A stretch of DNA of 26,154 nt from a virus (Duplodnaviria > Caudoviricetes). The position numbers and the translations under genes are program-made. The stretch is from positions 1 to 26,154 of IMG/VR virus record IMGVR_UViG_3300036987_000516. One strand, given 5' to 3'. Under the pieces are notes generated by a model. The model saw nothing but the letters and a program-made list of their open reading frames with translations, was not told where the DNA came from and searched no databases. Positions 1,927-24,767 of this stretch are shown here, in pieces (within the stretch, counting starts at the first letter, position 1; each line of letters starts with the position of its first letter).

Positions 1927-2409
1927 ATGGGCGGAATTACAAAAGAACAGGTACGGAGCATCTACGCGCTGGGCAGCGCGGCGGGGATCCTCGAGTCCGG
2001 AAACAAGGATGATTCTCTCCACGCGCTGGTCCGCCGCGTCACCGGCAAGGATACGGTCAGCAGCCTGACGGCAGAAGAATATGAGAAGGTCAAGCATGAG
2101 CTGCTGCCGCTGCTGAAATACAGGAACCACAAGCCCGCCGTCCCGGCATACGCTCCGGGCATGATGAACAAGGCCCAGCAGTCGCTTGCATGGCGCTACA
2201 TCTACCGGCTGCGGGAGCTGGATCAGGATACGGACGCACATGCGGCCACCGTCGGCGAGCGCATGGTCGGCGCGATCAAAAAGGTGCTGGGCGTCGACGC
2301 GAAAGTCGAGAGCCCGTTCAAGTGGCTCTCGCAGGAGCAGGGCGGCGCGCTGATTGAGCAGCTCAAACGGTATGTGCGGTCGGCGGAGCGCAGGAAGGGG
2401 GTGCACTGA
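1927..2409 (+). CDS. gemA: Mu GemA/gp16 (DUF1018)-like regulatory protein
   Basis: Q.R.IYAL...GI, LV...TGK.TVSSLT..E, and C-terminal WL..EQG..LIEQLK; position directly upstream of mor as in Mu-like phages. Confidence 0.8.
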   Translation: MGGITKEQVRSIYALGSAAGILESGNKDDSLHALVRRVTGKDTVSSLTAEEYEKVKHELLPLLKYRNHKPAVPAYAPGMMNKAQQSLAWRYIYRLRELDQDTDAHAATVGERMVGAIKKVLGVDAKVESPFKWLSQEQGGALIEQLKRYVRSAERRKGVH

Positions 2410-2726
2410 TGGATCTATTAGATCAGCTGCAGCCGGAGCACCTTGACGGAGAGCAGCGCAAGCTGGCCGATGCGATCGGCATCGAGGCGTTCAAAACGCT
2501 GGTAAAGATGTACGCCGGGTGCGTGGTGTATATCCCCACTGTGGACAAACTGACGATAAAAGTGCGTGACAGCCAAATTAAAAGTGAGTATACTGGGTAT
2601 AATCAACGCGACCTTGCGATCAGATACGGGATATCGGAGCAGTGGGTGCGCGTCATCGTCGGCGCGGCCATGCCGCCGATCGAAGGGCAGGTCAGCCTGT
2701 TCGACGACACGTCAGCGGCGGTTTAA
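2409..2726 (+). CDS. mor: Mor/C-family transcription activator
   Basis: LADAIG.EAF..LVK.Y.G..VYIP then RD..I..EY.G.N..DLA.RYGISEQWVR.IV (C-terminal HTH), typical of the Mor family. Confidence 0.92.
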   Translation: MDLLDQLQPEHLDGEQRKLADAIGIEAFKTLVKMYAGCVVYIPTVDKLTIKVRDSQIKSEYTGYNQRDLAIRYGISEQWVRVIVGAAMPPIEGQVSLFDDTSAAV

Positions 2727-2762: not shown

Positions 2763-2803
2763 AAAGCAGTTTGCTTTATGGTCAAGCACCCCTATGGTAA
2801 GGT
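2763..2803 (+). promoter_or_regulatory. Putative Mor-activated late promoter (dyad plus extended -10)
   Basis: Perfect dyad AAAGCA-GTT-TGCTTT (2763-2777) centred about 28 nt upstream of TG-G-TAAGGT (2795-2803); no good -35 box. Confidence 0.55.
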
Positions 2804-2835
2804 TTTAGTGTCAAGCTAAGACCTTATTTTTTTTT
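2798..2835 (+). terminator. Intrinsic terminator of the middle operon, overlapping the putative late promoter
   Basis: Stem TAAGGTTTTAG / CTAAGACCTTA (one G-U), loop TGTCAAG, followed by 9 T. Confidence 0.8.
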
Positions 2836-2849
2836 ACGGGCGGTGTCGG

Positions 2850-3501: not shown

Positions 3502-4041
3502 ATGGCAAGGCGCAAGCACTCCAAGATAGACGGTCTGCCAGCGGAGCTGAAGGACACCGTCGAGCAGATGATGCAGACCGACTTCACCTATGCGGATATC
3601 GCCGATTTCATCAAGCAGCAGGGCCACGACATATCGATCACGTCGGTGTGGCGGCACGCGAGCAATCTGGATAAGACGCTCAAAGAGCTGCGGATGGTGC
3701 AGGAAAATTTCCGCGTGGTGATGGACGAGATAAACCGGTACCCGCAGTTGGATCCCACGGAAGCCATTGCCCGGCTGCTCTCCCATCAGGTGCTCATGGC
3801 AATACAAAAGACTAAGCCGGAACAGTACGCAAACATGGACATCGACAAGCTTTTGCGCGAATCCGCAGGGCTGATCCGGGCGGTGTCGTTCAAGAAACGG
3901 GCGGATATGCAGAACAAGGGCGCGCTTGACGCAGGTCTCGAACAGGTCAAGGTGCTGGTATTCGAGGCGATGTCCAAGGAACGGCCTGACCTGTATGCGG
4001 CGGTCAGCAAGTACCTGGCCGAGAAGGGCGGCGCGGCATGA
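3502..4041 (+). CDS. DUF3486 / Mu gp27-like protein (probable small terminase subunit)
   Basis: N-terminus RRKHSKIDGLPAELK..VEQM....FTY.DI..FI..QG..IS.TSV.RH characteristic of DUF3486. Confidence 0.85.
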   Translation: MARRKHSKIDGLPAELKDTVEQMMQTDFTYADIADFIKQQGHDISITSVWRHASNLDKTLKELRMVQENFRVVMDEINRYPQLDPTEAIARLLSHQVLMAIQKTKPEQYANMDIDKLLRESAGLIRAVSFKKRADMQNKGALDAGLEQVKVLVFEAMSKERPDLYAAVSKYLAEKGGAA

Positions 4042-4544
4042 TCTATGTGGTGCACGTGCAGAGCGGCAAGGAGATGGCCGTGCGCGACGAGCTGCGGCGC
4101 AGCTGCTACCGCGCCATGGTGCCTCGGGAAAATGCGCTGGAGCGCGTGGACGGCAGGCTTCGCCAGCGCGAGCGGACACTGTTTACAGGCTATGTCTTTG
4201 TGGATATGGCCATGGACTTAAAGTCTTACTATAAGATACGCAACAACCCGCATGTGATTCGCTTTCTGGGCGGCAAGCAGCCGATTGAGCTGACCGCGGC
4301 GGAAGCTCGGTACATTGAATGGCTGGCAGGCGGCGGAAAGCCGCTGCAACCCTCCGAACTTGATAAAGACGGCGCGGTGATGACCGGCCCGCTGAAAGGC
4401 CACGAGCAATCCGTCGTCAGCGTAAATAAGCGCGCGAAACGCGCGAAGGTGAGGATCACTCTGGCGGGCGAGCCTCACGAGATCAGCCTGTCTGTAGTGA
4501 CCGCCGCCGGAGATAGCGACGGTGACGCTGACGGGGACCGTTAA
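4038..4544 (+). CDS. nusG: NusG-family transcription antiterminator (LoaP/UpxY-like paralog; NGN + KOW domains)
   Basis: YVVHVQSGKE, LFTGYVFVDM, VIRFLG...P..L...E (NGN); GPLKGHE..V..VNKRAKRAKVRI (KOW with basic patch). ATGA overlap with the upstream gene. Confidence 0.92.
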   Translation: MIYVVHVQSGKEMAVRDELRRSCYRAMVPRENALERVDGRLRQRERTLFTGYVFVDMAMDLKSYYKIRNNPHVIRFLGGKQPIELTAAEARYIEWLAGGGKPLQPSELDKDGAVMTGPLKGHEQSVVSVNKRAKRAKVRITLAGEPHEISLSVVTAAGDSDGDADGDR

Positions 4545-4585
4545 AATAACAAGGCTTGCGCCATAGATACACCTCCAAAACCGGT

Positions 4586-4664
4586 CCGATCGGCGGGGTT
4601 GATTCGTCCCCCGCCGGGCAGGATCGGCGTCATAAAGACAAAAAAACGGGTAAAAAGCTGCCCG
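4586..4664 (+). ncRNA. Candidate cis-acting antitermination RNA: bulged UUCG hairpin plus a second hairpin
   Basis: CGGCGGGG(4591-4598)-TT-GA-TTCG-TC-CCCCGCCG(4609-4616); flanking CCGATC/GATCGG; second stem CGGGTA/TGCCCG at 4647-4664. Non-coding gap between nusG and terL. Confidence 0.55.
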
Positions 4665-4671
4665 GATGTCC

Positions 4672-4703
4672 GACCTCACCCATTTTTGAGGTCTGTTTGT
4701 TTT
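4672..4703 (+). terminator. Intrinsic terminator between nusG and terL
   Basis: Perfect 7-bp stem GACCTCA / TGAGGTC, 8-nt loop, then TGTTTGTTTT. Confidence 0.7.
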
Positions 4704-4707
4704 AAAA

Positions 4708-4744
4708 GTATTCAACAGCGTTCGTCAGGTATTAAAGAGCGTTC
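4708..4744. repeat. Imperfect 16-bp direct repeat with 21-bp spacing
   Basis: GTATTCAACAGCGTTC (4708-4723) and GTATTAAAGAGCGTTC (4729-4744), 14/16 identical. Confidence 0.7.
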
Positions 4745-4839
4745 AAAAAGCCGGATGAGTGGGTACGGGCGCTTGGCAGGGTCGGGAGCACAGAACGCCT
4801 CACAGGGCGTCAAAAATATCAAAAAAGGAGGCTGCCTCC

Positions 4840-6576
4840 GTGAACGAGATCAAAAAGCACAGCATACAGGTTCTCGCCGACGCGGTTGCGGAGGCAGCCA
4901 TTAAAAACAGCGAGCAAATCAAGACCGATTTTAACGCTATTAAAACACTTTTAGAAGAGTGTTTAACGGTGGACGATGATCCCCGCCGCGCTGGGCTGCT
5001 GGAGCAGCTTCGGGCTGGCGCGAAGCTGACCGGCCCCGGCGGGCTGCGCAAAAGGCTCGCGGCGTTCGACCTGAACTATTTCGGGCGGGCGTACCTGCCC
5101 CACTATTTCAGCCGCCCGTCGCCGCCGTTCCACCGGGAACTGGACGCGCTCTTTGCCGAGGGCGTGATGAAGGGGCTGAATCCGCTGGACGACAGAAAGG
5201 CGATCAACCAGCGGCAGGGCTGCCGCCGGGCGACCGCCGCGCCGCGCGGCCACGCCAAGTCCACCAACTTCACGTTCAAGGACGGCCTGCACGCGACGCT
5301 GTATGAGTACAAGCACTACATCATCCTGATGTCCGATACGTACGGGCAGGCGGCGGGGTTCCTCTCCGCCTACGCTGAGGAGCTGGAGGAAAACGAAGCG
5401 ATCCGCGAGGACTTCGGGGAGCTGCGCGGCGGCGTCTGGCGCGAGGACGTGATCGTCACCAAAACCAACATTAAGGTGCAGGCGCTGGGCGCCGGGCAGA
5501 AAGTCCGCGGCCTCAAGCATAAGCAATGGCGTCCCGATCTGTTCATCCTCGACGACATGGAGAACGACGTCAACGTCCAGACGCCCGAACAGCGCAAGAA
5601 GCTGCTGGACTGGTTCACCAAGGCCGTGCTGAAGGCCGGAGACAGCTACACGGATTTTGTGTACATCGGCACCATGCTGCACTACGACGGCCTGCTTGCG
5701 AAGATCCTCAAGAATCCGGGATTCAAAGGCAGAAAATATCAGGCTGTGCTTTCCTTCTCCAGCTCCCCGCTTTGGGACGAGTGGGAGAAGATCTATATCA
5801 ACCTCGACAACGACAACCACGAAGCGGACGCGCTGGCGTTCTTCGAGGCCCGCCGCGAGGAGATGCTCTCCGGCACGCGGGTGCTGTGGGAGGAAAAGAA
5901 CAGCTACTACGATCTGATGCGGGAGCGCATCGACGGCGGCATATCGGCGTTCAACAGCGAGCTGCAGAACGAGCCGATCAATCCGGACGACTGCCTGTTC
6001 AACGAAGAGTGGTTCGATTACTACAACCCGTACGAGATCGATTTCCGCGACACCAAGTGGGATTTCTTCGGCTTTGTGGATCCGTCGCTGGGCAAGACCA
6101 AAAAGAGCGACTTCTCGGCGATCATCACGCTGGCGCTGGACAAAAAGACCGGGTACATGCTGGTGGCCGACGCGGACATCGAACGGCGGCACCCGGATAA
6201 GATCATCACCGACGTACTCGAGAAAGCGCGGTGGATCCAGAAGTCGTTCAATAAGCGGTACCGCAAGTTCGGCGCCGAAACCAACCAGTTCCAGTGGTTC
6301 CTGAAGGAACAGCTGGCCAAGGCCAGCGCCGCGGCGCGGGTGTACCTTCCCATCGTGGAGGTCAACCAGACATCGGACAAGACGCTGCGCATCCAGACGC
6401 TGCAGCCGGACGTGAAGAACAAGTACATCAAATTCAACCGGGACCACAAGCGGCTGCTCGAACAGCTCAAGTTCTTTCCGCTGGGCGACCACGACGACGG
6501 CCCCGACGCCCTCGAGGGCGCGCGAAGCCTCGCGACGCGCCGCGGCAGCGCCGGGTTTGTGGACGTAGTGATGTAA
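4840..6576 (+). CDS. terL: Terminase large subunit
   Basis: Walker A APRGHAKST, Walker B LFILDD.END, YIGT, nuclease FVDPSLG and HDDGPDALEG. Start set at GTG 4840 after AAGGAGG. Confidence 0.95.
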   Translation: MNEIKKHSIQVLADAVAEAAIKNSEQIKTDFNAIKTLLEECLTVDDDPRRAGLLEQLRAGAKLTGPGGLRKRLAAFDLNYFGRAYLPHYFSRPSPPFHRELDALFAEGVMKGLNPLDDRKAINQRQGCRRATAAPRGHAKSTNFTFKDGLHATLYEYKHYIILMSDTYGQAAGFLSAYAEELEENEAIREDFGELRGGVWREDVIVTKTNIKVQALGAGQKVRGLKHKQWRPDLFILDDMENDVNVQTPEQRKKLLDWFTKAVLKAGDSYTDFVYIGTMLHYDGLLAKILKNPGFKGRKYQAVLSFSSSPLWDEWEKIYINLDNDNHEADALAFFEARREEMLSGTRVLWEEKNSYYDLMRERIDGGISAFNSELQNEPINPDDCLFNEEWFDYYNPYEIDFRDTKWDFFGFVDPSLGKTKKSDFSAIITLALDKKTGYMLVADADIERRHPDKIITDVLEKARWIQKSFNKRYRKFGAETNQFQWFLKEQLAKASAAARVYLPIVEVNQTSDKTLRIQTLQPDVKNKYIKFNRDHKRLLEQLKFFPLGDHDDGPDALEGARSLATRRGSAGFVDVVM

Positions 6577-7971: not shown

Positions 7972-9317
7972 CCGCCGCGGAAAGGCTCGTTAAGTACTAT
8001 AAGGACGCGTACAAGCGGCTGCTGAAGAAGATATCCGAGCTGCCGCCCGGCTCCGGCTGGCAGCGGTATTACAGGCGGCTGGTCAGGGAGATCGAGAAGG
8101 AAGTCGCGAAGCTGGACGGCGAAGCCGCAAAGCAGCTGGCTGAGCTGGTGAAAAAAACATACTCCGCCGCCGAGGCCAAAGCGCTCTCCGACATACAGGC
8201 CGGGCCGTTCGGCGGGCTGAACCGCAGCGCCATGCGGCTCATCGCCGAGAACGCCGTGGATCAGATGGTCGAAGCCAACCACTATTTCGGGCGGCACCTT
8301 GCGGACGCCATCCGGCAGATCGGGCTGGACGCGATCGCGGAGAAGCTCTCCGCAGGGCAGACGGTGCGCGAGGCCAGAAAGCGGCTCATTGAGCGGCTGC
8401 AATCGGACGGCATGACAACGGTATCCGGCGGCGCCGGGCGAAAGTACCGGCTGGAAAGCTACGCGGAGCTGGTGGCGCGCACCACCACGCGCGAGGCGAC
8501 CAATACCGCGACGACGTCGACCGGCGAGCAGCTGGGCTACGACCTCGTGAAGTTTTCGACCCACTACCCCACCTGCGAGGTGTGCGCGCCGATACAGGGC
8601 CGCGTGTTCAGCATCTCCGGAAAGGACACGCGCTTCCCCGCCCTCTCGGAGGTGCCGGGCTTCGACAAAGGCTTCAAGACGATCCACCCGAACTGTCGGC
8701 ACGTGCTGGTGCTCACGGTAGAGGCGCTGTGGACGGACGCGGAGCGCGAGAAGTACCTCGCCGACGCAGGCAAGCCGCTGCGCGGCGACACCCGCACCCA
8801 GCAGGAGGTCGACGCCTATAACGCCACGCAGGCCGAGAAGCGCGACCGCTGGCAGGACCGGCGGCAGTGGGAAAAGTACAGGGCGGCGCTGGGCGACGAC
8901 GCCCCCAAGACCTTCAGTGCGTTCCGGGCGGTCAAGCGGGCGGACGGCGAAAGCTGGGCTGAGCTGCAGGGCACATATAAGGATGTATCATGGCAGCTTA
9001 AGTGCCAGAAGAACCTGACGGTCACTCAGGATCACAAGCTGCCCACCACAGACCAGCCGCCGAACTCCGCTATTGACAGGATCAACCAGTATGATAAAAT
9101 TATAAGGCGGAGATACTTCAATGCGTATGGGAATGTGAAGCTGGACTTTGATACAACCGATCACGGGGCACCAAAAGATCATCCATATATACCGCATTCG
9201 CATGACTGGACTGACAGCTCGACAGGGACGCCGAAGCATTGGGATAACCGGAAAAGTTCGCGTGCGGAAATCATCGCGAACATGGATATAATAGGTGATC
9301 AGTATGGATATGAATGA
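7968..9317 (+). CDS. Minor head (MuF / Phage_min_cap2) protein with C-terminal Ntox24-like toxin domain
   Basis: Y.LESYAELVARTT.RE, STH..TCEVC..IQGRVFS and HPNCRH motifs; AT-richer C-terminal extension RRRYFN..G....DFDTTDHG.PK.HP.IPH.HDW. Confidence 0.85.
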   Translation: MTAAERLVKYYKDAYKRLLKKISELPPGSGWQRYYRRLVREIEKEVAKLDGEAAKQLAELVKKTYSAAEAKALSDIQAGPFGGLNRSAMRLIAENAVDQMVEANHYFGRHLADAIRQIGLDAIAEKLSAGQTVREARKRLIERLQSDGMTTVSGGAGRKYRLESYAELVARTTTREATNTATTSTGEQLGYDLVKFSTHYPTCEVCAPIQGRVFSISGKDTRFPALSEVPGFDKGFKTIHPNCRHVLVLTVEALWTDAEREKYLADAGKPLRGDTRTQQEVDAYNATQAEKRDRWQDRRQWEKYRAALGDDAPKTFSAFRAVKRADGESWAELQGTYKDVSWQLKCQKNLTVTQDHKLPTTDQPPNSAIDRINQYDKIIRRRYFNAYGNVKLDFDTTDHGAPKDHPYIPHSHDWTDSSTGTPKHWDNRKSSRAEIIANMDIIGDQYGYE

Positions 9318-9546
9318 TTTGAAATGGTTTAAGGATACCGTCAACATGGGCGACGATATTGTATTTACTATTGGCCAGAAACAATTTTGGATCGGAACGG
9401 CTGATGGTGGCAAGCATATTATTGCTCAAAGCCCTGATGGGCCGGACACGTTTTTCAAGAACGCTGATGACCTGCTGCATAATTTTATAATTGATAATAT
9501 GCCGTTGGGCAAACAGCTGGACAAAATTATCTTTATCAACGCGTAA
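9304..9546 (+). CDS. Probable immunity protein for the MuF C-terminal toxin
   Basis: 80-aa AT-rich ORF overlapping the toxin stop, AGGTG RBS, followed by a terminator. Confidence 0.7.
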   Translation: MDMNDLKWFKDTVNMGDDIVFTIGQKQFWIGTADGGKHIIAQSPDGPDTFFKNADDLLHNFIIDNMPLGKQLDKIIFINA

Positions 9547-9568: not shown

Positions 9569-9592
9569 AAAAAAGCCTTAAAGGGCTTTTTT
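9569..9592. terminator. Terminator-like hairpin (possibly bidirectional) after the toxin-immunity pair
   Basis: AAAAAAGCCT-TAAA-GGGCTTTTTT. Confidence 0.65.
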
Positions 9593-9607
9593 ATATTACC
9601 CAAAATA

Positions 9608-9690
9608 CGCCTACCATGCCGGGCACTTAACTGCATGGCCCCGCGAGCATCCGGAGTAGACCGGCATTTAAACCAAATCTACGGGGAGAA
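9608..9690 (+). ncRNA. Structured 5' leader of the scaffold gene (possible GP20-type cis-regulatory RNA)
   Basis: Stems CCATGC/GCATGG (9614-9638), CCGG-AGTAGA-CCGG (9651-9664), CCCCG/CGGGG (9639-9686); loop GTAGA complementary to TCTAC (9678-9682). Confidence 0.45.
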
Positions 9691-9699
9691 AGGAAACCC

Positions 9700-14397: not shown

Positions 14398-14432
14398 GGG
14401 GATGGGGATCCCTCCATCCCCCACATTTTTTT
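14398..14432 (+). terminator. Terminator/attenuator-like hairpin between tail tube and chaperone genes
   Basis: GGGGATGGGG-ATCC-CTCCATCCCC (10-bp stem, one G-U), then CACA and 7 T. Confidence 0.65.
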
Positions 14433-14918: not shown

Positions 14919-15058
14919 AAATATCCAGAGAGCAGCTGCTTAATGAGTTTTACACGGACGAGTTCCTGCTCGTGCTCGACGAATACAACGATATGCATAA
15001 AATTGAGAAGGACAAAAAAGAGGATAAAGTGGTGTACGTCCGGGCCGAACAGTGGTAG
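14825..15058 (+). CDS. -1 frameshift extension of the tail chaperone (gpGT analogue; fusion 14445..15058)
   Basis: -1 frame open 14798-15058 with no clear RBS; slippery T TTT TTC (14825-14831) and C AAA AAG (14852-14858) lie in the overlap. Confidence 0.7.
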   Translation, partial: FFRGRGGADQKAAAADTGHWLQRWIAIGAELKISREQLLNEFYTDEFLLVLDEYNDMHKIEKDKKEDKVVYVRAEQW

Positions 15059-15061
15059 AAT
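15053..15061 (+). promoter_or_regulatory. Extended -10 promoter candidate for the lipoprotein moron
   Basis: TG-G-TAGAAT about 30 nt upstream of the GGAGG-ATG of the lipoprotein. Confidence 0.45.
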
Positions 15062-15092
15062 GTGGGCATCAAAAATTGTTGGAGGTAGCATT

Positions 15093-15605
15093 ATGCCAAA
15101 GTTATTGTCTATACTGCTTATTATTGGGCTGCTCATTTTGACAGGCTGTGCCGATACCGGAACTTATATAACGGAAAGCCAGCCTGATAATCCAACTTTG
15201 GAGGCAACGCATGATCTTACTCCAGAACCATTAAAGATGCCTGTAAGAATTGCATGGATGAATTTAGAGGCATCGTCCGAATCAACCGTGAATCTGCAAA
15301 TTCAGGTTGAAAACACAGGTGATAAGGTTGTGGTAGGATACAAGATTTATGCGCAGCTTTTTGATGCCGATGGGCAAATAGTAAGAGACACCTTTATGGG
15401 CGGCACAGGAGAAGAACGCCAAACAATTATGCGCAAAGGCATAGAGCTAAAAAAAGGTTATAAAACCGATAGGGATATAAAAACGGCTATTATGTCAGTG
15501 GAAGGTGTGGTCGCATTTAAGGCGGCGGTTTATGAATGTACGTATGAGGATGGTAACGTCAGCGAACTTTCCGATGGTGAGCTGGAGTGGATAATGTATC
15601 CATAA
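15093..15605 (+). CDS. Lipoprotein moron (beta-sandwich-like), possible superinfection exclusion
   Basis: Signal peptide MPKLLSILLIIGLLILTG-C with lipobox LTGC; AT-rich; GGAGG RBS; V.N.GDK and LFDADG.IV motifs. Confidence 0.8.
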   Translation: MPKLLSILLIIGLLILTGCADTGTYITESQPDNPTLEATHDLTPEPLKMPVRIAWMNLEASSESTVNLQIQVENTGDKVVVGYKIYAQLFDADGQIVRDTFMGGTGEERQTIMRKGIELKKGYKTDRDIKTAIMSVEGVVAFKAAVYECTYEDGNVSELSDGELEWIMYP

Positions 15606-15633: not shown

Positions 15634-15658
15634 AAGCATCTTGCTGAGGTGCTTTTTT
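15634..15658 (+). terminator. Intrinsic terminator after the lipoprotein, upstream of TMP
   Basis: AAGCATCTT-GCT-GAGGTGCTT followed by a T run. Confidence 0.72.
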
Positions 15659-22330: not shown

Positions 22331-22987
22331 ATGGCGAGAACTACGCCGGTACATGAAGGATATACCATCGTCAACGGTGCGGGTACCGGGCCGAATGGCG
22401 ACCGGATCGACGTCTGGATTGAGTATAAGTTAATACACCAAGCGCTTTTTGACGTCAATAACAGACATACGTCTTGGGTTGATTTTTATTTCTATGCAGC
22501 TTTAAAGCCCGGGCAGTCATCGAGCACAAACGGGGCCAGCGGAGCCTATGCTGAAATTGAATTATACCAGGCGGAATACCCGGAGGACCCATGGTCAATA
22601 TTTGCTGGCGGAAATAATTTACCATACGATTTCCGAAGCACAAACATCAATAATGACTTTACGCTTGACGCGGAGGTGGCCCATACCTATCCGGTGCCTG
22701 CGGATCCGTTTGAATGGGATGATTACCTCCCCTGGCCTTTTCTCCATGACAGTGACGGCGTATGCCGGGAAAAAATACGGGCGAGCTTTACAACGCCGTC
22801 CAGCTTTATCACGGGCGGCTATGTCAGCGAATTTACTCCGGCGCTGCCCGATATACCTTGTGGAAAGTTCAGGGCGCGAGCCGGAGACACGTGGAAGTCT
22901 ACCGAGGTATACGTAAGAGGGAACTCTTTCTGGCGGCCCGGAGATGTTTGGGTAAAAGATGGCGGCATATGGAAACAGGGGGTGTGA
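22331..22987 (+). CDS. Tail-fibre-associated beta-rich protein
   Basis: GAGGTG RBS; aromatic, beta-rich; C-terminal WK..EVYV....W...VWVK.GG.WK repeats typical of partners of GDIWIK-ending fibres. Confidence 0.7.
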   Translation: MARTTPVHEGYTIVNGAGTGPNGDRIDVWIEYKLIHQALFDVNNRHTSWVDFYFYAALKPGQSSSTNGASGAYAEIELYQAEYPEDPWSIFAGGNNLPYDFRSTNINNDFTLDAEVAHTYPVPADPFEWDDYLPWPFLHDSDGVCREKIRASFTTPSSFITGGYVSEFTPALPDIPCGKFRARAGDTWKSTEVYVRGNSFWRPGDVWVKDGGIWKQGV

Positions 22988-22990
22988 GCC

Positions 22991-23125
22991 ATGAGCAAAT
23001 ACAGCCGGTTCTGGTATGTCAAGATGGTCGTCCTGATGGCGCTGGTGCTGGCCGCGCTCCTATGCGGGTGTGCCATGGCCGCGATGGATACGCTTCAGTT
23101 GCTGCTTGCAGGGCAGCTTTTTTAG
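22991..23125 (+). CDS. 44-aa hydrophobic peptide, possible mini-lipoprotein (not in ORF track)
   Basis: MSKYSRFWYVKMVVLMALVLAALLCGCAMAAMDTLQLLLAGQLF*; GGGGGTG RBS; fills the gap exactly. Confidence 0.55.
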   Translation: MSKYSRFWYVKMVVLMALVLAALLCGCAMAAMDTLQLLLAGQLF

Positions 23126-23142
23126 AAAGGAAGTGCGTTTTA

Positions 23143-23361
23143 ATGGGATTTGAAGAGGCTTTAAGGCATATTAAAAACGGCGGGCGCGCGGCGCGCAGCG
23201 GCTGGAACGGCAAGGGCATGTGGGCGGCGTTATGGCATCCCCATCCGGATGACGCCATGACATTGCCGTACATCTATATGAAAAATCCAAAGGGCGATTA
23301 TGCGCCGTGGACGCCCACCCAGTGCGATGTGCTGGCTGAGGACTGGGAGATCGTCGCGTAG
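23143..23361 (+). CDS. tad2: DUF2829 / Tad2-like protein (predicted immune-signal sponge)
   Basis: F.EAL..IK.G.R.AR.GWNGKGMW...PYIYMK......PW.P.Q.D.LAEDW, the DUF2829 signature; ATG 23143 after AAAGGA. Confidence 0.82.
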   Translation: MGFEEALRHIKNGGRAARSGWNGKGMWAALWHPHPDDAMTLPYIYMKNPKGDYAPWTPTQCDVLAEDWEIVA

Positions 23362-24680: not shown

Positions 24681-24737
24681 TTTTCTACGGTGGGCAACTA
24701 CGAATCATTAAAGAACATAAATGATAAAAGTGAGCCG

Positions 24738-24767
24738 ATAGGCGCCGGAGAGGCGCTTATTATATTT
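24738..24767 (+). terminator. Weak terminator-like hairpin before the lysis genes
   Basis: ATAGGCGCC-GGAGA-GGCGCTTAT then TATATTT. Confidence 0.5.

Follow-up and report, generated by a model that had tools for sequence, protein, structure and literature searches.

Results

Gene content of the locus

The 26,154 bases analysed here, referred to below as the window, make up a provirus record (49% complete) that covers the late region of a Mu-like phage. Its genes all lie on the plus strand and encode Gam, GemA, a Mor/C-family activator and a small terminase subunit (TerS) like Mu gp27, followed by the large terminase subunit, portal, head and siphovirus tail proteins (Table 1). The terS stop codon (4041) overlaps the start (4038) of an ORF encoding a 168-residue protein of the NusG family (PF02357, 62.5 bits; PHROG 6386, "transcription antiterminator"). 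Downstream lies terL, whose likely start is GTG 4840, as judged from a ribosome binding site at 4823-4830 and from relatives, the ORF caller having chosen a longer start at 4759. A 5-bp hairpin could form at this ribosome binding site (4826-4838), with no obvious conservation in relatives. Further into the window, a weak match to the Rfam family GP20-a lies directly 5' of the scaffold gene (9605-9696; 32.7 bits, gathering score 47.2), and the 3' part of ORF 22762-23361 encodes a domain resembling Tad2 of Thoeris anti-defence (PF11195, 87 bits).

Records of relatives belong mainly to Oscillospiraceae, Ruminococcus, Lachnospiraceae and other Bacillota, and the Mu-like prophage family that carries the LoaP-type gene together with the Rfam motif RAGATH-28 is found in gut and soil Bacillota.

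Table 1. Coordinates of genes and of observed or predicted regulatory features in the window
Feature	Position	Strand	Basis or detail
Mor/C-family activator gene	2409..2726	+	PF08765, 55.2 bits; PHROG 836/532, late transcriptional activator
Mor/C-type late promoter, predicted	2763..2803	+	dyad 2763-2772; -10-like hexamer 2798-2803
Strong intrinsic terminator, predicted end of middle transcript	2796..2837	+	d 27.2
Terminase small subunit, Mu gp27-like	3502..4041	+	PF11985; PHROG 426
LoaP-type NusG paralog, NGN and basic beta-barrel KOW (predicted)	4038..4544	+	NF033641, 115 bits (cut-off 125); 8F5G best PDB match
P1, covarying stem with 5' UU bulge, G-C and A-U pairs and UUCG loop; 5' half of RAGATH-28	4590..4617	+	Rfam match, folding, covariation
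P2, variable-sequence hairpin, predicted pause hairpin	4647..4664	+	ends 13 nt before predicted pause
Predicted pause element	4667..4678	+	G-10 at 4668, C-1 at 4677, A+1 at 4678
Weak intrinsic terminator overlapping pause element	4672..4703	+	scan; d'Aubenton-type score -15.3
Terminase large subunit, first gene 3' of module	4840..6576	+	PHROG 38, TIGR01630
Terminator-like hairpin before scaffold gene	9569..9595	+	d under -10; site recurs at this position in homologues
Terminator-like hairpin after major tail gene	14398..14432	+	d 4.7
Terminator-like hairpin before tape measure gene	15634..15658	+	d -3.4
Terminator-like hairpin late in tail region	24737..24766	+	d -2.3

The NusG paralog lies closest to LoaP

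The window protein was compared with models of the specialised and housekeeping NusG families. The best NCBIfam model was LoaP (NF033641), at 115 bits just under the cut-off of 125, and LoaP was the top model for all nine proteins tested, namely the window protein and eight phage homologues picked across the tree. Six of these eight homologues scored above the cut-off, including one 52% identical to the window protein (L020, 136 bits); the clade thus reaches the LoaP family, and the window protein falls narrowly outside it. The other models scored far below their cut-offs with the window protein: 36.2 against 100 bits for UpxY (26-73 for the homologues), 22.5 against 144.5 for RfaH, and 61.7 against 135.7 for housekeeping NusG (TIGR00922).

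The nearest PDB entry by sequence (E 1e-16) was 8F5G, entitled "NusG-RNA complex", which we take to be the published LoaP-RNA structure. Its chain is close in sequence to the paralog of L233, a locus above the LoaP cut-off, and its fold matched a predicted model of the window protein (pLDDT 90) over both domains with a TM score of 0.86 and an rmsd of 2.2. The C-terminal domain (CTD) is predicted from this model to be a basic beta barrel as in LoaP and not the helical form of RfaH, and neither the helical autoinhibited CTD of RfaH nor GCGGTAGC was found in the window protein and locus.

The basic KOW patch NKRAKRAKVR, picked out when the DNA was first read without database searches, occupies residues 130-139. 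The window protein shares R36, R132, R135 and a KOW charge of +4 with LoaP. Arginine occupies position 36 in 59 of 60 viral proteins, in 140 of 150 cluster representatives and in 6 of 8 LoaP proteins, and it is not among the four commonest residues there in 26 housekeeping NusG proteins. The same 26 have a KOW net charge of -3, compared with +3 to +4 (median +3) in the phage proteins. Residues E40, R41 and I143 are named as RNA contacts of LoaP in PMC12691694. E35 and R36 align with the E-R pair of 8F5G by deduced numbering, and E35, the likely equivalent of E40, is glutamate in 30 of 60 proteins.

A quick tree of 75 sequences, UpxY not among them, put the phage proteins outside the clade of housekeeping NusG (support 97) and apart from RfaH-like sequences; support for the branch uniting them with LoaP was just 80. 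The window protein formed a subclade with L017, L018 and L019 (support 89). A profile search returned representatives of 161 clusters (50% identity) at E values up to 1e-30. A metagenome scan yielded 24 distant relatives at 24-34% identity and no members of the subclade, and a scan of viral contigs with the single protein yielded one locus.

The paralog gene is followed by RAGATH-28 and a covarying hairpin

Positions 4593-4675 match the Rfam motif RAGATH-28 (RF03052) over its full length (model positions 1-85 of 85) with 42.5 bits and an E value of 2.5e-4. The P1 stretch is identical to the consensus, and the score stays below the gathering score of 45.3 because the 3' end of the window copy is variant. 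The sequence-only reading had offered the locus as its best candidate for an undescribed system. The RNA is in fact a catalogued orphan motif, and what stands of that claim is that no paper on a phage LoaP system turned up in our literature search, which left out most subscription papers, the original LoaP papers among them. The name RAGATH-28 itself was found neither in the literature searched nor in the main text of Weinberg 2017 (PMC5737381), whose supplement may note the nusG neighbour.

The bulged UUCG stem that had been described about 45 nt past the stop codon of the paralog gene was recovered: 4590-4598 pair with 4609-4617, a UU bulge lies at 4599-4600, and the pairs G4601-C4608 and A4602-U4607 close the UUCG loop (4603-4606). 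The region 4540-4720 folds with a z score of -4.15, and none of 200 shuffles was as low. In ViennaRNA the bulged UUCG form (-16.5 kcal/mol) is nearly level with a form having an open 10-nt loop (-16.9 kcal/mol), and the inner pairs have probabilities of 0.25-0.32; the evidence for the cap therefore comes from comparison across homologues.

For that comparison we used 79 sequences of less than 80% identity, drawn from 149 plus the window, bearing in mind that the search pattern imposed the hairpin core of the genome set. Outer pairs 3-7 of P1 are paired in 94, 75, 77, 58 and 61% of the sequences, against about 40% when the halves are permuted, and none of 1000 permutations, which ignore kinship, was as high. 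The stem is thus conserved in homologues and its outer pairs covary, as the first description of the locus had asked to be checked. RNAalifold on a MAFFT alignment recovered four P1 pairs, each showing changes on both sides (in 41 sequences at one of the pairs); P2 was not recovered. The capped hairpin is present in 70 of 81 distinct contexts, with A-U (55) or U.G (14) as the closing pair and G-C as the second pair in 67, and its strict form occurs in 57 of 81 contexts compared with 0 of 118 control sites. P1 is degenerate in L031 and L043. Most loci without the class A core have a class B cap (G-C, U.G and UNCG, with a single-U bulge or none).

The class B cap (G-U-UUCG-G-C) also occurs 3' of loaP at two of seven chromosomal LoaP loci and at one of 26 housekeeping loci. 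The hairpins at L236 and L237, which resemble the class B cap and lie 0-100 nt 3' of loaP, are candidate LoaP target hairpins. On sequence grounds, P1 is predicted to be the LoaP-binding hairpin of the phage family.

Gene and motif are tightly linked

Linkage was followed from the motif, from the protein and from terS; some seeds of the query alignments came from loci selected by motif, so the sets are not fully independent. A 17-base motif pattern identified 15 loci in viral contigs, five of them near-copies: the paralog gene directly precedes the motif in 13, the contig end truncates another, and the remaining one is unrelated. A two-part pattern identified at least 120 loci in GTDB genomes (about 130 estimated), and in 96 of the 120 matches listed the paralog gene ends between -55 and +263 nt from the motif. 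Of the 24 gene-negative matches listed, 23 have only 0-1 flanking pairs and appear to be chance matches. At L172 a full motif stands near position 4000 with no paralog upstream, beside what looks by eye like a transposase-type N-terminus, probably a remnant of prophage deletion. Among 80 loci with wide flanks, at least one further gene of the window phage was matched in 63 of the 65 that were gene-positive.

When loci were selected by protein, the best 80 of 177 relatives gave 60 distinct proteins, and the class A core followed 42 of the 60 (controls 1/60 and 0/57). When they were selected by terS, an HMM found the paralog at 45 of 48 distinct loci, and inspection by eye found it at L309. Among the same 48 loci there was no usable phage without the paralog, since L352 breaks into host DNA and L372 ends. 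The paralog gene and RAGATH-28 are tightly linked.

A pause-like element resembling opsX follows the hairpin

The second hairpin reported behind the UUCG stem, P2, is present. At least five contiguous pairs form at this position in 76% of the 79 sequences (50% in the control), with a median z of -2.1. Behind it lies a part of the element that the sequence-only reading had overlooked, a pause-like sequence (GGCGNAGC) that shares its register with opsX of Bacteroides; its counterpart in the window is 4667-4678. It is the most conserved part of the element across the family. RTGGCGNAGC occurs about 65 nt 3' of the loop in 51 of 59 loci, with variants in three more, and in none of the upstream (0/58), distal (0/57) or reverse-strand (0/59) controls. 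A looser pattern permitting two mismatches had matched 45 of 60 control regions and was replaced by this strict one. The spacing from the UNCG loop to the pause consensus is fixed at about 59-75 nt. With the first G taken as -10, positions -1 and +1 are Y and R in 65 of 81 contexts, and another 14 conform if -10 is assigned to the second G (79/81), the estimated chance fit being about a quarter per register. L348 and L350 have no recognisable pause element.

The central base of GCGNAGC is variable (A 33, G 9, C 5, T 1), and the bases on either side are fixed. GNA loops are stable. In the phage element the variable N lies at -6 and P2 ends at -13/-14. According to Saba 2024 (PMC11685472), the opsX hairpin of Bacteroides is YGCGNAGCR, its key position is -6, and a pause hairpin immediately precedes it. 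The window, L017, L018 and L019 keep G-10, Y-1 and R+1 and have lost the GCGNAGC core, so that any claim about a DNA hairpin covers the family and not the window copy. Neither the core nor P2 was found at any of seven chromosomal LoaP loci (500 nt upstream, 600 nt downstream).

Immediately beyond, at 4690-4820 in the window and 25-175 nt past the pause element in homologues, are A/T tracts phased at 10-11 bp together with CGTTYAA repeats (149 in 143 loci, compared with 13 in 113 control stretches). Judging by its sequence, this region is possibly bent DNA, a gyrase site or a packaging site.

A single late promoter is predicted upstream of the module

Downstream of mor, 83 of 90 loci have a terminator-like site. 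Its 5' arm contains a -10-like hexamer (G+TAnnnT) in 51 of 83 loci, compared with 11% of shuffled sequences, with a dyad about 25 nt upstream. Mu late promoters are described in PMC2582627 as activator-dependent, with a -10 and no -35 element, and the post-mor signature fits a promoter of this type as far as its sequence goes. The Mor/C-family protein encoded just upstream is its likely activator. In the window the predicted promoter likewise lies in the 5' arm of the post-mor terminator; since the start site would fall inside the hairpin, the late transcript would escape that terminator.

A position weight matrix (PWM) for this promoter scored 22.2 at 2798 and no more than 11.8 elsewhere in the window (training range 15-25, the window being part of the training set). 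Among 26 long loci it matched upstream of the paralog in 23, a partly circular result, and downstream of the paralog it gave background, with 9 sense and 15 antisense matches and none recurrent, although divergent promoters can escape the PWM. An internal Mor-type promoter had been suspected before the scaffold gene, and the PWM gave it no support. A separate promoter between 4703 and 4840 would have undercut the notion of a gate before terL; no promoter signature was found in that interval. The stretch from the element to the next gene shows no excess of -10-like hexamers (56 of 143 loci, 67.5 +/- 5.2 in shuffled sequence), and none occurs there in the window.

Terminators of the late region

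The terminator that had been placed directly before terL exists at 4672-4703. Its U-tract is interrupted, its score is low, and it ends about 137 nt before GTG 4840. Stems similar by eye are present in the four nearest relatives of the window. As a fixed part of the module, such a gate did not hold up. By relaxed criteria a terminator lies within 150 nt of the element in 60 of 144 loci (within 60 nt in 25 of them), compared with 45 of 144 on the antisense strand and 7% of shuffles, and in L077 and L073 the element runs nearly straight into the terL start.

The sequence-only reading had also listed internal terminators at 9569, 14398, 15634 and 24738. These are intergenic hairpins with U-tracts, as claimed, but their scores are only moderate, and over the whole window sites with d > -10 number 8 sense and 9 antisense. 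Across 9 kb of the 26 long loci, 28 sense terminators have d > 0, of which 22 are intergenic, compared with 13 antisense terminators, 6 of them intergenic; intergenic DNA makes up 10% of the sequence. Eighteen of the 26 loci have at least one intergenic sense terminator at this threshold, often before the scaffold gene, and eight have none. Most of the internal terminators viewed (19 of the 22) sit a few tens of bases 5' of a ribosome binding site.

GC content is lower upstream of three of the four internal terminators in the window. It is plausible from the sequence that morons here keep their own terminators in the lysogen. A strong sigma-70-like promoter (11 of 12, extended -10) lies at 9073-9100, inside the 3' end of the minor head gene, which is low in GC. 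Together with a small ORF (9295-9546) and the terminator at 9569, this stretch has the look of a polymorphic C-terminal domain whose partner gene is expressed separately. A second moron candidate, ORF 14943-15605, is low in GC, stands between the tail chaperone and tape measure genes and is followed by a terminator; leads point to an Ig-like fold only. A search of the ESM Atlas with the two candidates (9295-9546 region and 14943-15605) returned no named function.

Discussion

A proposed antitermination switch for the late transcript

The above considerations indicate that the paralog and RAGATH-28 probably act together as a processive antitermination switch on the one late transcript of this Mu-like phage, a reading drawn from sequence comparison. 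The protein and RNA module acting after Mor, as first proposed, is supported by the linkage, the covariation, the LoaP signatures, the single predicted promoter and the internal terminators of homologues; it has to be extended by the opsX-like pause.

In this proposal, the Mor/C-family protein would activate one promoter near 2800, and transcription starting inside the terminator of the middle transcript would escape it. Early rounds would yield TerS and the paralog, after which most transcription would end at the weak 4672-4703 terminator or at one further on. Because the paralog gene lies inside the transcript that it would control, a delay after activation would follow while the paralog accumulates. 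RNA polymerase would pause near 4677 behind P2, and the paralog would bind the bulged UNCG hairpin about 65 nt upstream of the pause and dock on the polymerase. In most family members it would probably also contact the GCGNAGC non-template DNA hairpin, which probably helps loading at the pause. The modified complex would resist NusA-aided intrinsic termination across more than 21 kb of head and tail genes, on a transcript of more than 23 kb. Virion genes would be delayed, and leaky or moron transcripts would be kept short in the lysogen. LoaP is reported in PMC12691694 to require a UNCG hairpin, to be helped by a downstream pause and to oppose NusA-aided intrinsic termination, and we infer loading at the pause through P1 from the match of the element layout to these features.

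Going further, we tentatively suggest a hybrid loading site of a kind not reported for any NusG paralog, an idea that we hold to be somewhat short of probable. At a pause stabilised by a hairpin, a single factor would read both a nascent RNA hairpin of the LoaP type and a non-template DNA hairpin of the opsX type. RAGATH-28 would be that site, and one promoter with a self-encoded antiterminator would replace the four late promoters of Mu. The subclade of the window would have switched the DNA half, and late switches based on NusG paralogs would have arisen more than once in temperate phages.

Alternative explanations

It is also conceivable that the paralog is recruited at the motif and acts mainly against Rho or through coupling to translation, as RfaH does, or at the first terminator only, with the distal hairpins serving as leaky attenuators that set stoichiometry. 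The ops-like pause core is the best conserved part of the element, the gate terminator is missing in most loci and the internal terminators are weak, all of which would suit such a role. The CTD, however, is predicted to be a basic beta barrel as in LoaP and not the RfaH helical form, RfaH models score the window protein at about 22 bits, and LoaP acts on intrinsic terminators without a ribosome, according to PMC12691694. We consider this explanation unlikely.

The spacing of the element bears on whether RAGATH-28 might instead be a separate small RNA, or a stability or autoregulatory element in the 3' UTR of the paralog mRNA with no effect on downstream elongation. Rfam types the motif as "Gene; sRNA", its place is always directly 3' of the gene, and the window copy ends in a terminator. 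Against this, the distance from the UNCG loop to the pause consensus is fixed, some loci pass from the element nearly into terL with the terminator absent, and the variable middle base of GCGNAGC fits the DNA mini-hairpin described in PMC11685472, which leaves an RNA of this kind very unlikely.

Still less credible is a scheme in which several activator-dependent late promoters drive the structural blocks, as in Mu, with the module giving no more than a minor boost. Four C-dependent late promoters are described for Mu in PMC2582627 and PMC4461284, and -10-like hexamers occur in the AT-rich tails behind internal terminators. The promoter signature nevertheless does not recur downstream in the window or in the 26 homologous loci, with the reservation that the PWM can miss divergent promoters, and between the element and the next gene the hexamers lack enrichment.

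That the conserved sequence is a DNA packaging or topology site between terS and terL, unrelated to the paralog, is suggested by the phased A/T tracts directly behind the element and is barely credible given that compensatory changes including G-U pairs, together with the UNCG loop, point to RNA and that the motif follows the paralog even where the next gene is not terL.

Significance and comparison with known systems

If correct, the antitermination switch would give a function to the orphan Rfam motif RAGATH-28 and, for a common group of prophages of gut Clostridia, would add a route of phage late-gene control to the known N, Q and put. It would also form a bridge between LoaP, recruited by RNA, and RfaH and UpxY, recruited by DNA at a pause. 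At about 700 bp the module is compact, and it comes in dozens of natural variants, which suits it to a Bacillus reporter and makes the loading of LoaP on RNA polymerase directly testable. For prophages, passages in PMC7819879 and PMC7593976 name rfaH-like genes only. The system is widespread and appears to be an uncharacterised variant of NusG-paralog antitermination.

The closest relative is LoaP (NF033641; the dfn and mln operons of Bacillus velezensis; 8F5G), which has in common with the phage system a NusG paralog with a basic KOW domain, the beta-hairpin arginine, the predicted two-domain arrangement, and the order of UNCG hairpin, pause and intrinsic terminators on a long operon in a Bacillota host. 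The phage paralog differs in being phage-borne, in lying inside the transcript it would control and in targeting virion genes. Its element has the opsX-like GCGNAGC core and P2, and the window protein falls 10 bits under the LoaP cut-off.

In Bacteroides, UpxY/opsX combines a pause hairpin with a non-template DNA hairpin behind it, GCGNAGC, in which N lies at -6 and the register is G-10/Y-1/R+1 (PMC11685472). The phage family shares GCGNAGC with N at -6 in 51 of 59 loci, though not in the window. P2 ends at -13/-14 and not at -12 to -9. The Bacteroides site precedes upxY and is read as DNA; the phage element follows its gene and has a separate conserved RNA hairpin. The window protein is far below the UpxY cut-off (36 vs 100 bits). 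RfaH/ops resembles the phage system in having a GCG..AGC stem in a 12-nt pause register, but the phage core has a one-base loop in place of a two-base loop, the CTD is a predicted beta barrel, and the RfaH HMM score is 22.5 against 144.5. Rfam models P1 of RAGATH-28 with an open 10-nt loop as an sRNA, whereas here we read the motif as a cis element.

With lambda N and Q and HK022 put the proposed switch shares control of read-through in a phage. N and Q are not NusG-like, and put acts without a protein. In conAn of pLS20, too, an RNA element comes after a protein gene, close to where a long operon of a mobile element begins; in PMC8191782, NusG-like antiterminators are grouped separately from it, and conAn2 is given as 260-600 bp. 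Three alphaproteobacterial temperate phages, phi2LM21, phi3LM21 and PPF1, have an annotated NusG paralog before their late genes, followed by hairpins and a strong terminator, and in two of the three an ops-like GCG-AA-AGC stretch precedes that terminator. In the two Sinorhizobium phages among them, phi3LM21 (L297) and phi2LM21 (L298), the hairpins, ops-like stretch and strong terminator lie 150-210 nt behind nusG. The proteins of the three phages, known as NusG from annotation only, are 26-29% identical to the paralog; the phages are not Mu-like and have no RAGATH-28, which in the family described here stands directly behind the LoaP-type gene.
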